Origin: Candidatus Latescibacterota bacterium | GTDB taxonomy: Bacteria > Latescibacterota > UBA2968 > GCA-2709665 | NCBI GenBank assembly: GCA_965116875.1 | Contig: OZ220733.1 | Location: 4,352,001-4,416,000, forward strand | Length of the DNA stretch: 64,000 nucleotides | Direction: 5' to 3' | Shown: positions 43,408-60,429 of the stretch, one piece after another | How positions within the stretch are numbered: the first letter of the stretch is position 1 | Layout: every line of letters starts with the position of its first letter | Notes under the pieces: generated by a model | Databases searched by the model: none | Seen by the model: the letters and a program-made list of their open reading frames with translations, nothing else | Told to the model about the DNA's origin: nothing | Translations under genes and position numbers: made by a program

Positions 43408-43483
43408 TGGTGACCCCGAGGGGAGTCGAACCCCCGTTTCCAGGGTGAGAACCTGGTGTCCTAGGCCACTGAACGACGGGGTC
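43408..43483 (-). tRNA. tRNA-Glu (CTC)
   Basis: GACCCCG acceptor stem, CCAGG-TT-CTC-AC-CCTGG anticodon arm, GTTCGACTC T-loop, encoded CCA. Confidence 0.95.
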
Positions 43484-44040: not shown

Positions 44041-44090
44041 GCGACCCTTCGACCCTTCGACAAGCTCAGGGACCGCAATCTCAGTGAGCG
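44041..44090 (-). repeat. Two nested CTGAGC.TGTCGAAG hairpin units
   Basis: Reverse complement reads CACTGAGATTG[cggtCCCTGAGCTTGTCGAAGGG]TCGAAGGG. Confidence 0.75.
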
Positions 44091-46448: not shown

Positions 46449-46985
46449 ACTGTCATCCAGAGGAGGCCTGCGCGCGACGTCGCCGAAACACATCCGGTCC
46501 ACGTGAGAACAGCCTGCCATGCAGCGCAGGCCGACGAAGGATCTACTGCAGCATCGGTTCATCATCACGCGGTTTGCACGTTGCGACACCGACGAGGCAG
46601 CACGTCCGCCAAGACTGTCATCCAGAGAAGGCCGAAAAGCAGGCGATGGGTCCGCGCACAAGTTCGTCTGCGAAGGGCATGTACTCCACGTCCAATCGAG
46701 AAGACGGGAGATTCTTCGCTCCGCTCTGAATGACATGACTTTCAATTGCCATTAGTAAATCGCTTCCTTCAAGTGTTCGCCTGGACTGTTGTGCTGAGAA
46801 GGCAGGCGCGCTCAGAATGACATGTTGGCCGATAGCCAGGCGCGTTGCTTCCCACTGTCATCCAGAGGAGGCCCCCCAGGCCGACGAAGGATCTAATGCG
46901 GCATGGTATTGTCCCAGCGCGATTTGTACGTGGCGATACCTGAGAGGCAGCACGTTCGCTTCCTGCTACGACTCCGCTCAATGAG
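46449..46985. repeat. Left REP-like array flanking GIY-YIG gene
   Basis: ACTGTCATCCAGAG at 46449, 46614, 46854; inverted CTC(T/A)GAATGACA at 46724, 46811. Confidence 0.85.
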
Positions 46986-47039
46986 ACGAAGTTCGAACAA
47001 TACAAGCGTGGGCATATCTGACAATTATCCGCAAACCAC

Positions 47040-47321
47040 CTACCAATCTATGGAAAGGTCTCCCATGGCCGGATTGGCACGATTTATCAATTCGAGTTTT
47101 TTCTGTCGACTCCAACCCTTCAGTTCCTTCTCTCTCGAAATTGCTCGGTGTATGTCAGATGTTGTTTCAAAGTACACCAGCCTATTCATCCGGTACTTGC
47201 TTGTGAACCCTGCAGAGAGCGTGTGTCTGTGTTCATAAACTCGTCGTTTGAGATCGTTGGTTACACCAATATATAACGTTCCACTCCGATTTGTCATGAT
47301 GTAGACGAAGTATTGGTTCAT
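47040..47321 (-). CDS. Stand-alone GIY-YIG nuclease family protein
   Basis: YFVYIM...LYIGVTNDLKRRVYEH...FTSKY...AISREKELKGWSR.KK. Confidence 0.92.
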   Translation of the reverse strand: MNQYFVYIMTNRSGTLYIGVTNDLKRRVYEHRHTLSAGFTSKYRMNRLVYFETTSDIHRAISREKELKGWSRQKKLELINRANPAMGDLSIDW

Positions 47322-47364
47322 CGAATGTTAGAATTATGGGATTGAACGACGGTGCGCCCACCAC

Positions 47365-48031
47365 ACATCCGCCGAGATTGCCATGTTGAGAAAGCCGCCA
47401 GGCAGGCGAAGCGTCCGCGCACAAGTTCATCCGCCAAAGGTCTGCGGGACACGTACTGCCCGGAAGACGGGAGATTCTTCGCTGCGCACTGAATGACATG
47501 TCCTGCAATGACCATCGGCGAAATGTATCCTTCACACATCGGCGCGTACAGTTATGCAGCAAAGGCCTGCGCGCTCAGAATGACATGTTTTGCAATAACT
47601 ATTGGCGAAATGTAACGGCCAAACCTTCGCCGATACTGTCATCCAGAGGACTTGCACTGAGCATGTCGAAGTGCCCTTCACGCTCTGAATGACACGTTGG
47701 CCCATAGCCAGGCGTGTTGCTTCCCACTGTCATCCAGAGGACTTGCACTGAGCTTGTGGTCCCTGAGCCGTTGTCCTGCTTGTGCTGAGCCTGTCGAAGC
47801 AAGCCTGCCGAAGGATTGTCGAAGGGTCGAAGTGGCATGCGCGCGACGTCGGCGAAACACATCCGTTACACGTGAGAGCAGACTACCTTGCAGAGCAGGC
47901 CGACGAAGGATCTACTGCAGCATCGGTTCGTCCCTGAGAGAATTTCACGTGGCGACACCTCAGAGGCGGCACAAACACGTCCTTCGCAGAATGGAAGTGA
48001 CGGGAGGTTCTTCGCCGCGGCCAGAATGACA
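47365..48031. repeat. Right REP-like array flanking GIY-YIG gene
   Basis: ACTGTCATCCAGAG at 47635, 47726; GAATGACA ends at ~47487, 47574, 47683, 48020; 47365-47500 homologous to 46601-46737. Confidence 0.85.
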
Positions 48032-51549: not shown

Positions 51550-51922
51550 CATGGGTGGACAGGATAAACAGGATGAAAGGCGATAGGCCTGACACACACG
51601 ACATTTGCCTGACGAAAGCGATGAATCTACAGATAAGGAATCACGGGACGTCATAAAGGCCTCACCGTTTCCATCGCTTGCCGAAACGTGGTCATTGAGC
51701 TTGTCGAAATGCCAGTGTTCCGCGATACGTTCGGCGCGTACATGGAGTTCTTCACCGACCCTTCGAAAAGCGAACCGGCCGCAGGCTCAGCGATCTGCAC
51801 CAAAATCGGGCGCGTTTCTGGCCGCGCGACCCGGCGACAGAATCCTGCCAACCTGCTTCAGAATTAGAAAGCCTGAGCCTGCAACGTCGCATGAAGCCAA
51901 TCATCCGCGAAGAAAGAAGACC

Positions 51923-54970: not shown

Positions 54971-55047
54971 TGGTGCGGATGCCAGGATTCGAACCCGGAA
55001 CCGCCTGGTCCGTAGCCAGGTGCTCTATCCAGTTGAGCCACATCCGC
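54971..55047 (-). tRNA. tRNA-Arg (ACG)
   Basis: GCGGATG acceptor stem, CCTGG-CT-ACG-GA-CCAGG arm, GTTCGAATC, encoded CCA. Confidence 0.95.
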
Positions 55048-59134: not shown

Positions 59135-60391
59135 ATGGACGAACTTTCAACCAACCGGCCGATGACGGCGCGCAGGGAAATGGTGCTGCGGGTGGGGCAG
59201 GGCGAGGGCGACCTGCAGGGGACCGACGACAAGGCGCTTCAGGCCGGCGCGGACTATCTGAGGCGGATTGGCGGCGGGATTCTGCGGATTTTGCCCGGGG
59301 TGTACACCATGCGCAACGCGCTCTATCTGCATCCGAATCTGACGGTTCGGGGAGAGGGTGAAGCCACGGTGCTGAAAAAGGCGCCGGGATTCAAAACGGA
59401 TCTGGTGCGGGACTCGGACTGGTACGAGGCGCGCGTGGCCGTCCGGGACCCGGAAGGGTTCGGTGCGGGGTGCGGCGTGATGCTGCGGGCGTTTCGCGGC
59501 GGAGACGGGCGGATGGAGGTCGTGAAAGACACCGTTACGGCGGTGGAGGGCAACCTGGTTTCGCTGAGCAGGCGGATCTACAAGAACATGTGGCTGGAAG
59601 AACGCGCGACGCTGGCAACGGTTTTTCCAATCCTGACGGCGGAGGAAGGCGTGCACGACGTCCGGGTTGAGGACCTGGTGCTCGACGGCAACCGCGATGA
59701 AAACGAGGAGATAAACGGGAACTATTCCGGAGCGGTGTTCCTGCAGCGCTGTCACAGGTACCGGTTCACGAACGTAACCGCACGGAACTACAACGGGGAC
59801 GGATTCAGCTTTCAGATCTGCGACGACTTCGTCTTTGAGAGCTGCGTGTCGCAGCAGAATGCCAATCTGGGTTTTCATCCGGGCAGCGGGTCGCAGCGGC
59901 CGGTGTTCCGGGACTGCCGATCCACCGGCAACAGCCAGGGCATCTTCTTCTGCTGGGGGGTATCGGACGGGCTTGCTGAGCGTTGCATCTGCTCGGACAA
60001 TCTCGACTTCGGCATTTCCATCGGGCACAGAGATACGGACAACCGGATCCGGGACTGCAGCATCGAGCGCAACCACAAGGTGGGCGTGCTTTTTCGGGAG
60101 CCCCAGTCGGAATTCAGAGGCGCCCATCGAAACGTCCTGGACTCCTGCCGCATCCGGGACAACGGATTTGCGGCCGAAGGTACGGGCGTGGACGTTCTCG
60201 GGGAGACGCATCAGGTCGAGATACGCAACTGCCGGATCGAAGACAGCGGCGACGGCAGGCAGAAAACCGGTATACGCATCGGCGGGCGGGCGAAGGAGAT
60301 TGTGGTCGACGGGAATCAGTTCCGGAACATGGAGGAAAACGTGAGGATGGAAGGCGTCCGGGAGGCAGCGCTGACCGGAGCCGCTCCCTGA
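59135..60391 (+). CDS. Right-handed parallel beta-helix (pectate-lyase-like) protein
   Basis: DDKALQAG, PGVY, repeated N...G(F/I) beta-helix turns. Confidence 0.75.
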   Translation: MDELSTNRPMTARREMVLRVGQGEGDLQGTDDKALQAGADYLRRIGGGILRILPGVYTMRNALYLHPNLTVRGEGEATVLKKAPGFKTDLVRDSDWYEARVAVRDPEGFGAGCGVMLRAFRGGDGRMEVVKDTVTAVEGNLVSLSRRIYKNMWLEERATLATVFPILTAEEGVHDVRVEDLVLDGNRDENEEINGNYSGAVFLQRCHRYRFTNVTARNYNGDGFSFQICDDFVFESCVSQQNANLGFHPGSGSQRPVFRDCRSTGNSQGIFFCWGVSDGLAERCICSDNLDFGISIGHRDTDNRIRDCSIERNHKVGVLFREPQSEFRGAHRNVLDSCRIRDNGFAAEGTGVDVLGETHQVEIRNCRIEDSGDGRQKTGIRIGGRAKEIVVDGNQFRNMEENVRMEGVREAALTGAAP

Positions 60392-60404
60392 GCATGTCGA
60401 AGGG
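60386..60404 (+). repeat. Single CCCTGAGCATGTCGAAGGG hairpin unit containing the upstream gene's stop codon
   Basis: TGA at 60389-60391 lies inside the unit. Confidence 0.75.
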
Positions 60405-60429
60405 TCGGCGCAGGAACAAGGAGGAAGCC

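Follow-up and report, generated by a model that had tools for sequence, protein, structure and literature searches.

A four-level nest of a 23-nt hairpin unit in a Latescibacterota genome, probably built by oriented, duplication-free insertion

The locus described here raises the question of how four copies of a hairpin unit of 23 nucleotides (nt) came to lie one inside the other, on a single strand and in a single orientation. The copies occupy positions 47742-47834 of the window, by which we mean the whole 64,000-nt stretch of DNA that was analysed (contig OZ220733.1, positions 4,352,001 to 4,416,000, from a Candidatus Latescibacterota bacterium). We consider it probable that the unit is an insertion element resembling the repetitive extragenic palindromic (REP) sequences, one that enters single-stranded DNA in a fixed orientation and without target duplication and is moved in trans, and that the segment is a four-level nest of this element.

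A unit is made up of a head of 4-5 nt followed by 19 nt of the form NN-CTGAGC-YTG-TCGAAG-N'N'. Reading of the sequence and indexing of its pieces resolved the segment exactly into four such units (Table 1), as the initial annotation had stated, and the other claims made there about the internal structure of the nest were confirmed as well: excision of each inner unit leaves a 19-nt unit at all levels, the end pairs (CA/TG, CC/GG, TC/GA and TG/CA) are mirrored and complementary, and no target duplication accompanies the nest. The core CTGAGCNNNNCGAAG is present six times in the window, compared with 0.04 expected, and none of 100 shuffles reached that number. The level-3 guest type at its position (cgttg TCCTG at position 8) has seven occurrences genome-wide.

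In the source genome (G000, a single contig of 5.45 Mb) the strict pattern NN-CTGAGC-NNNN-CGAAG-NN identified 127 units, in 116 of which both end pairs are complementary or G-T. When the compensated variant was admitted and three complementary outer pairs were required, 134 units were found compared with a single one in the reversed genome, and 129 of these 134 lie outside gene calls, albeit crude ones. The outer pairs define more than six subfamilies among the 134 units, including CCC/GGG (63 units), CAT/ATG (26), TGC/GCA (13), CAC/GTG (12) and TCC/GGA (10) as well as smaller ones, and the head counts among the 127 strict units include CTTG (28), CGGT (22), CGCT (17), TGGT (11), CCTG (9) and CGTC (3). 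Where units are neighbours, 23 of 33 pairs form inverted tail-to-tail doublets. Units are also carried inside larger repeats: a composite of ~110 nt, in which a CGC/GCG unit (head GGGA or CGGA) faces an inverted CGCT-headed CC/GG nest, is present in four copies (G000 8498/8567, 1708471/1708540, 1961296/1961365 and 5438891/5438959).

Nesting was tabulated across the genome, a check that the initial annotation had proposed, and the events proved to lie at discrete positions. Excision of 23 nt restores a strict host for 33 of the 127 units and excision of 24 nt for six, while other excision lengths restore a host for 0-1 units, with the exception of an alternative reading at 34 nt (seven units). 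By recursive parsing we recovered 81 nesting events in 54 of 119 loci, with five loci holding three events, that is, four levels; the window nest is among the deepest in the genome. Guests lie in the host unit at position 5 (NNCTG^AGC), position 8 (after CTGAGC) or position 11 (after the loop), and the head follows the position and not the guest, being YGGT at position 11, CGCT or CGTTG at position 8, and CTTG both at position 5 and in the arm of the host repeat described below; the identical CC/GG guest bears different heads at different positions. No nest in opposite orientation was found among the 127 units of this genome or among 216 units in 110 loci of other genomes. Heterotypic two-level structures are particularly informative as to origin: among 43 of them, 31 show the mirrored order, none the crossed order and 12 neither, and an order that is mirrored and never crossed excludes independent tandem duplication as the origin of the nests. 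Nor are the guests local copies of their hosts, since guest and host are of the same type in 81 of 164 events and the loop base matches in 47 of 118.

Intermediate states persist within the genome. The 70-nt inner module of the nest (levels 2-4) was identified by blastn near full length at six other loci, and at four loci it was found minus exactly the innermost 23 nt. The longer GTCAT-headed hairpin repeats in which the nest is lodged likewise occur both empty and filled. These host repeats have the form GTCAT-CCAGAGGA-GGCC ... GGCC-GACGAAGG-ATC, and 56 GTCAT-headed heads were found in the genome. GGCC comes immediately after the head in 25 of them (empty), and 18 continue with CTTG and a unit (filled); a filled repeat is longer by a net 22 nt with a shared G. 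The uninterrupted paralogue that had been noted near 46459 is real (46452-46470), whereas the accompanying statement that the nest interrupts AGAGGA|GGCCTG needed correction, the sequence 3' of the nest being GCATG and not GGCCTG. GTCAT-headed repeats crowd both sides of a gene for a GIY-YIG protein of 93 amino acids (aa). The island containing this gene (46475-48016) is absent as a whole in the genomes G008 and G014, where its two flanks abut, and it seems to have been acquired or lost in one piece, between two host-repeat copies. In G010, the GIY-YIG gene contains an in-frame TAA.

Differences of exactly one unit also separate species. Presence and absence of units were compared within the genus, where flanking DNA is 80-93% identical, and the comparison, suggested in the initial annotation at the level of strains, returned exact 23-nt differences at orthologous loci between species. 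At the site of window position 60386 there is no unit in G008, G005 or G003, and the nest is two levels deep in G000 and G010 and three deep in G004, the last with an exact extra 23 nt (cggtCCCTGAGCTTGTCGAAGGG) that form a guest identical to its host. At locus L142 the depth is three levels in G000 but two in G003 and G004, the difference again being exactly 23 nt; the G008 orthologue of this locus (L160; G000 ~2404400) is a plain tandem array of five to six copies with a period of 24 and the spacer cgctg, so the unit can expand head-to-tail as well. One and the same orthologous host unit may hold different guests: at L141 it carries a position-11 CC/GG guest in G000 and a position-8 TC/GA guest in G005 and G003, and at L143 a position-11 guest in G000 and a position-9 guest in G005 and G008, with the entire ~330-bp segment missing in three species. 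The spacer around the nest at window 44041-44090 measures ~129 bp in G000 compared with ~25 bp in five sister species. Host-repeat copies of G010 and G005 hold the outer CA/TG unit alone and intact in place of the four-level nest of G000, but the orthology of these copies is uncertain because the repeat is multi-copy. At two of the six extra loci compared (L140 and L144) only one flank is conserved. Beside one nest (G000 228019-228215; L140:519-715) lies a repeat of ~200 bp that has more than 100 matches at 78-98% identity in five sister genomes, and which looks like a very abundant element of the genus of the miniature inverted-repeat transposable element (MITE) kind.

The units are not confined to this species. 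The core is present in 32-111 copies in each of the 15 genomes of the genus, and other relatives mostly have 0-2 and a few 10-26, with the reversed pattern giving 0-1. A nest with a YGGT-headed guest at position 11 matched at least 110 stretches of a species collection, with record titles spanning at least ten phyla. Among the matches listed, titles name Bacteroidales families, Treponema, Latescibacterota, Gemmatimonadota, Vicinamibacteria, Binatia, Gammaproteobacteria, Margulisiibacteriota, Eggerthellaceae, a flavobacterium, a cyanobacterium and one archaeal bin, of which the single odd taxa need caution because bins can be contaminated. At the loci of other genomes the head is YGGT in 130 of 134 position-11 events and in 51 of 80 solitary units. 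In addition, at least 119 viral-contig stretches contain the YGGT-headed unit, several of them 3-5 times, and these may be phage DNA or host DNA flanking a prophage; a plasmid collection searched with the nest gave no match. The near-identity of the sequence across phyla and viral contigs indicates a conserved partner and horizontal spread. This spread, together with the position-dependent head and the recurring pre-nested composite modules, had been overlooked in the initial annotation.

Given the shared orientation of guests and hosts, the lack of duplication, the fixed positions, the insertions into an unrelated arm and into unique DNA, and the differing guests, single-strand insertion fits the observations best. 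In the mechanism that we favour, the stem of the unit would consist of a conserved tandem G-A/A-G core enclosed by outer pairs that co-vary, with the 4-5-nt head on its 5' side. Units would be inserted in trans into single-stranded DNA, or copied in, at a hairpin-defined site, and composites with intact outer ends would be inserted likewise, these ends being what would keep them mobile. Landing would take the orientation of the host, without target duplication, and would be limited to a small number of set sites within or next to the loop of a hairpin already in place: positions 5, 8/9 and 11 of another unit, or a 5' arm in the longer GTCAT-headed repeats that flank the GIY-YIG gene. Because each guest supplies a fresh hairpin, the process would recurse. 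For the present locus, a history of three steps is the most economical: a CA/TG unit would have entered the host repeat after AGAGGA, a state that repeat copies in two sister species still show; a 70-nt module, already assembled (CC/GG containing TC/GA containing TG/CA), would have entered at position 11; and slippage and short deletions would have trimmed some nests elsewhere.

A broader proposal, which we advance tentatively, is that YGGT-NNCTGAGCYTGTCGAAGNN could be a 23-nt non-autonomous single-strand element of many phyla and phage contigs, targeting the loop of its own hairpin and moved by a conserved trans activity, either a single-strand nuclease of the Ssn type (a GIY-YIG family) acting with host repair or a housekeeping enzyme. 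If this proposal is true, no smaller widespread mobile DNA would be known, and the element would offer a natural means of placing short DNA at hairpin-defined sites.

Several observations weigh against single-strand insertion of the unit. Folding predictions give little stability (-1.6 kcal/mol for each unit, and z = -1.62 for the nest), although the folding tool gives no credit for tandem G-A pairs and its energies are uninformative here. Tandem G-A pairs are favoured in a 5'-YGAR-3' context. As the folding energy is weak, the claim that the unit is a hairpin rests on covariation. No clear strand bias of units between replichores was found, and a single-strand mechanism acting on the lagging strand might predict one; the skew minimum and maximum are unevenly placed in this genome and the origin and terminus calls used are rough. 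A by-eye comparison showed no complementarity of head and target as in IS608, the head does not correlate with the loop of host or guest as a copy of either would, and the single-strand reading accounts neither for the dependence of the head on position nor for the strong conservation of the unit across phyla. In deep homotypic arrays the 5' and 3' halves differ in number, for example (3,7), (3,5), (4,2) and (4,3), and no array of 3/3 or 4/4 was found, from which it follows that slippage also shapes nests afterwards. Identical composites recur, so copy number may owe much to gene conversion or to movement of larger repeats. All comparisons were between species, with no within-population event among them. 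Finally, with regard to mis-assembly, for which a read-based check had been advised, exact short-read contigs span 47717-47784 (two runs from two studies) and 47807-47918 (one run) and so support both flanks and most of the nest, but no short-read contig listed bridges the high-copy middle or the nest as a whole.

It also counts against this reading that no mobilising enzyme was identified. The initial annotation had envisaged an ultra-short hairpin inserting into itself and related hairpins, driven by a GIY-YIG nuclease like the neighbouring one; the nesting in itself and in related hairpins, the lack of duplication and the empty and filled states were all upheld, and the part that found no support was the nuclease as driver. 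The GIY-YIG gene at 47040-47321 has PF01541 over residues 3-75 of its 93-aa product and no extra domain, and is present in two copies in the genome; the protein has a sub-threshold NCBIfam match to group I intron endonuclease, and its best solved relative is a UPF0213 protein (E = 5.8e-6). Among 41 relatives, a homologue (E <= 1e-5) was detected in 12 of 18 genomes with at least 10 units and in 13 of 23 with fewer. Homologues that are 72-74% identical occur in G025, G028 and G035, each of which has 0-1 units. Conversely, a Pfam search of the unit-rich sister genomes G014 (one contig) and G003 returned no small GIY-YIG gene, only a ~650-aa open frame that was taken as UvrC; the sensitivity of this search is imperfect, as G002 and G011 gave no GIY-YIG match whatever, UvrC-like included. 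The neighbouring GIY-YIG gene is a poor predictor of unit abundance. We think it doubtful that an Ssn-type GIY-YIG nuclease with host repair is the mover, and an unrecognised or housekeeping activity is more likely.

The genome has one frame resembling the REP-associated tyrosine transposases (RAYT), at G000 2123414-2123932, which contains the HUH motif and scores 33 bits against NF047646, for which the cut-off is 80. This frame is interrupted: it ends short of the C-terminal region, which carries on in a second frame. Repeated gene fragments surround it, and its flanks hold no units but another repeat (of the GGGGCGGACATTCCTGTCTGCC type). The same repeat type also occurs at window 41750-41775. 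For the Y1 HUH transposase family PF01797 there was one partial match (23.7 bits), far from any unit.

The main rival to insertion in trans is a homing-like spread, in which a nuclease would nick an intact unit or host repeat at a fixed place and repair would copy in a filled copy by way of the short arms or the repeat flanks, without any transposition; each guest would be a new intact site, and depth would grow accordingly. Such a process is consistent with composites that are stereotyped and multi-copy, with the fixed insertion positions, with host repeats that number ~50 copies and share long flanks, and with the extra guest of G004 that is identical to its host. Moreover, a GIY-YIG nuclease gene lies within the repeat cluster, and members of the Ssn family, according to PMC11893778, cut single-stranded DNA just upstream of such hairpins. 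However, solitary units are found in unique sequence, where insertion without homology is needed, the arms common to units measure no more than 8-11 nt, a single guest type is found in several types of host, one orthologous host holds different guests at different positions, and units are plentiful where no small GIY-YIG gene was found. Taken as the whole explanation, homing seems to us unlikely; as a supplement to insertion, conversion of empty by filled units probably adds copy number.

Far less probable is a reading in which selection maintains the nests as structured elements (terminators, protein-binding sites or structured RNA, for example) and they recur because of a function. The arms are conserved across phyla, the outer pairs co-vary, the units are almost always intergenic and neighbouring pairs are mostly tail-to-tail, all of which would fit such elements. 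On the other hand, units are oriented without bias with respect to the genes beside them (66 same, 60 opposite) and, in the same genome-wide tally, show no preference for convergent spacers. Rfam yielded no family over the window at gathering thresholds besides two transfer RNAs (tRNAs), and none over 47600-47960 at E up to 10. Furthermore, the presence and depth of nests vary freely at orthologous sites, and copy number ranges from 0 to 111 among relatives.

An origin with no insertion at all, by independent slippage duplication of a 15-nt 5' repeat (head, arm and loop) and an 8-nt 3' repeat around the hairpin centre, appears more improbable still. It would account for the unequal half counts of deep homotypic arrays, for orphan 5' halves at 41812-41829 and for the period-24 tandem array of G008 at an orthologous site, but it cannot yield the mirrored order of heterotypic structures, to which the window nest with its four distinct and correctly mirrored end pairs belongs, and it leaves unexplained both the nests in which a guest at position 5 or 8 splits the host arm and the insertion in the unrelated arm of the host repeat. 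That the nest is an artefact of reads mis-joined in a repeat-rich region is scarcely credible, because although no short-read contig listed crosses the high-copy 47784-47807, exact contigs account for the flanks on both sides and for most of the nest (the 5' part in two studies), the 70-nt module is present at six other loci in the genome, and equivalent nests occur in 14 sister genomes and many unrelated assemblies.

Two subsidiary ideas were considered and set aside. An origin of the head as a reverse-copied tRNA-like ACCA end is not favoured because CGGT heads outnumber TGGT heads (79 and 51). A general rule that units land in the loops of pre-existing hairpins was dropped, as palindromic extension of the flanks in the source genome was not above the control; in other phyla, an extension of at least 5 bp was seen for 13% of units compared with 3% of the control.

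Part of what is described above has precedents, namely nested tiny hairpin repeats, repeats made of a head and a palindrome, and a link to Ssn; what is notable in the 23-nt unit is its spread, its recursion and the missing enzyme. Among the nearest counterparts are the small dispersed repeats (SDR) of heterocyst-forming cyanobacteria, which Elhai and co-workers reportedly described in 2008 as dispersed repeats of 21-27 nt that share a hairpin with compensatory changes. Some SDR families are said to be nested in their own copies, no enzyme is reportedly known for them, and they are said to have been proposed as the smallest mobile elements. On this definition, the 23-nt unit shares with SDR the size of 21-27 nt, the compensated hairpin and the self-nesting. 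The two differ in unit sequence, in distribution (many phyla as opposed to a cyanobacterial subgroup), in the position-linked heads and in the adjoining repeats that are associated with a GIY-YIG gene. The SDR work is cited in PMC3116915 and touched on in a sentence of PMC2884548.

The IS200/IS605 elements, which move by 'peel and paste', have hairpin-defined ends and insert in a strand- and orientation-specific manner at a fixed short site without target duplication. The units resemble them in all these respects, but differ in that no Y1 transposase lies by the units, there is one hairpin and not two, the length is 23 nt as opposed to several hundred or more, and no complementarity between head and target was found. 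Single-strand transposition of the IS200/IS605 kind is cited in the Discussion of PMC11893778.

REP, bacterial interspersed mosaic element (BIME) and REPIN elements are mobilised by RAYT transposases (PMC3116915 and PMC3733652). The units are REP-like in having a 4-nt unpaired head, an imperfect palindrome of ~20 nt, an intergenic location, a hundred or more copies, inverted doublets and compensated stems. They depart from REP and REPIN elements in their heads, which are YGGT, CGCT and CTTG and not GTAG or CGTC, in that no RAYT gene is flanked by units, and in that single units, and not only doublets, vary between species.

The Ssn GIY-YIG nucleases are described in PMC11893778 as binding hairpin repeats as single-stranded DNA and cutting a few bases upstream, and CGTC-tagged REPs are identified with NTS or Ssn-related motifs (SRM) in PMC11893778 and PMC3733652. 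On that description, the units resemble these motifs in having a head, a stem of 8-9 bp and a short loop and in being directional. The neighbouring gene resembles the family, which CDD group cd10448 defines, in its single GIY-YIG domain and its length (93 aa compared with ~94 aa), and the GTCAT-headed repeats that flank it recall the arrangement NTS-ssnA-NTS, whereas the 23-nt units lie mostly far from such genes. A further difference is that unit abundance does not follow the gene, and the Ssn work (PMC11893778) demonstrates cutting and not insertion. The SRM pattern HGTCWY N(0-2) YYVSBRH N(0-5) WNVSBRG N(0-2) RNCYNB (Chenal et al. 2025) matched the genome 49 times compared with 30 in a reversed control; in the window it gave a single match (9243), which falls on none of the host repeats or units. 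The word 'nested' has no occurrence in PMC3116915, PMC3733652 or PMC11893778. A literature search for the unit strings and for nesting of a 23-nt unit gave no match, many subscription journals and supplements, including the Ssn repeat tables, being outside its scope.

If the units truly insert, they bear on the lower size limit of mobile DNA, with no known transposase to which they can be assigned. They pose the question of which activity can recognise a hairpin of 19 nt built around a tandem G-A core and place it at fixed positions in a single orientation without duplication. Oligonucleotides would allow a direct test of the link to the recently described single-strand nucleases of the Ssn family. 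In practical terms, the nests break short-read assemblies and give rise to spurious reading frames in intergenic DNA, and they provide unit-exact markers that separate closely related lineages.

Table 1. Pieces of the four-level nest, other units and host repeats, and the GIY-YIG gene (positions are those of the window)
Feature	Position	Strand	Basis or remark
Host head and 5' arm, GTCATCCAGAGGA	47729-47741	+	Long GTCAT-headed hairpin repeat, resembles Ssn-related motif; nest starts directly 3'
Level 1: head, 5' half and loop, cttgCACTGAGCTTG = cttg CACTGAGC TTG	47742-47756	+	3' half at 47827-47834
Level 2: head and 5' half, tggtCCCTGAGC = tggt CCCTGAGC	47757-47768	+	At host position 11; loop and 3' half at 47816-47826
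Level 3: head and first 5 nt, cgttg TCCTG	47769-47778	+	At host position 8; rest at 47802-47815
Level 4: intact innermost 23-nt unit, cttgTGCTGAGCCTGTCGAAGCA = cttg TGCTGAGCCTGTCGAAGCA	47779-47801	+	At host position 5
Level 3: remainder, AGCCTGCCGAAGGA = AGC CTG CCGAAGGA	47802-47815	+	Indexed parse
Level 2: loop and 3' half, TTGTCGAAGGG = TTG TCGAAGGG	47816-47826	+	Indexed parse
Level 1: 3' half, TCGAAGTG	47827-47834	+	Indexed parse
Rest of host hairpin repeat: long loop, then 3' arm GGCCGACGAAGGATC (47898-47912)	47835-47912	+	Sequence reading
Host repeat, empty paralogue, GTCATCCAGAGGA-GGCCTG ... GGCCGACGAAGGATC	46452-46543	+	Sequence reading
Host repeat, short-loop empty copy = basic hairpin GTCAT-CCAGAGGAGGCC-CCCCA-GGCCGACGAAGG-ATC	46857-46893	+	Sequence reading
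Host repeat head, then un-nested unit cttg CACTGAGCATGTCGAAGTG	47638-47673	+	Sequence reading
Host head, two orphan 5' halves (cttgCCCTG, cttgTGCTG; 41812-41829), two-level nest cttgCACTGAGCCTG[tggtCCCTGAGCTTGTCGAAGGG]TCGAAGTG	41799-41875	+	Sequence reading
Nest cgct CACTGAGATTG [cggt CCCTGAGCTTGTCGAAGGG] TCGAAGGG	44041-44090	-	Intergenic spacer ~129 bp
CAT/ATG compensated-subfamily unit, tggt CATTGAGCTTGTCGAAATG	51689-51711	+	26 such units genome-wide
Two-level composite: degenerate outer ACCGGAGC ... TCGGCGCAGG with cgct CCCTGAGCATGTCGAAGGG at position 8	60374-60414	+	Sequence and orthologous sites
GIY-YIG gene, 93 aa, single-domain, Ssn-like	47040-47321	-	PF01541 E = 1.7e-15; GTCAT-headed repeats on both sides

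The remaining units of the window (Table 1) correspond in the main to those listed in the initial annotation. The two-deep nest at 41830 does have two levels, but the two orphan 5' halves upstream of it had been missed; the two-deep nest at 44041-44090 and the single, un-nested unit at 47655 are as stated. What was listed as a single unit at 51689 is one of the compensated variant (CATTGAGC...TCGAAATG), and the supposed single unit at 60386 sits within a degenerate outer unit. A further, widespread repeat, GTCATTCTGAGCGNAGCGAAGAATCTC, is found twice in the genome and has the same arms (CTGAGC/CGAAG) as the 23-nt unit; it or a close variant lies at G000 2079447, at G000 3100139 and, on the minus strand, at window 46716-46740, with a GTCA head typical of Ssn-associated repeats. 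The two tRNA genes found with Rfam are both on the minus strand (43411-43483 and 54974-55047), the first ~560 bp from the nest at 44041-44090.

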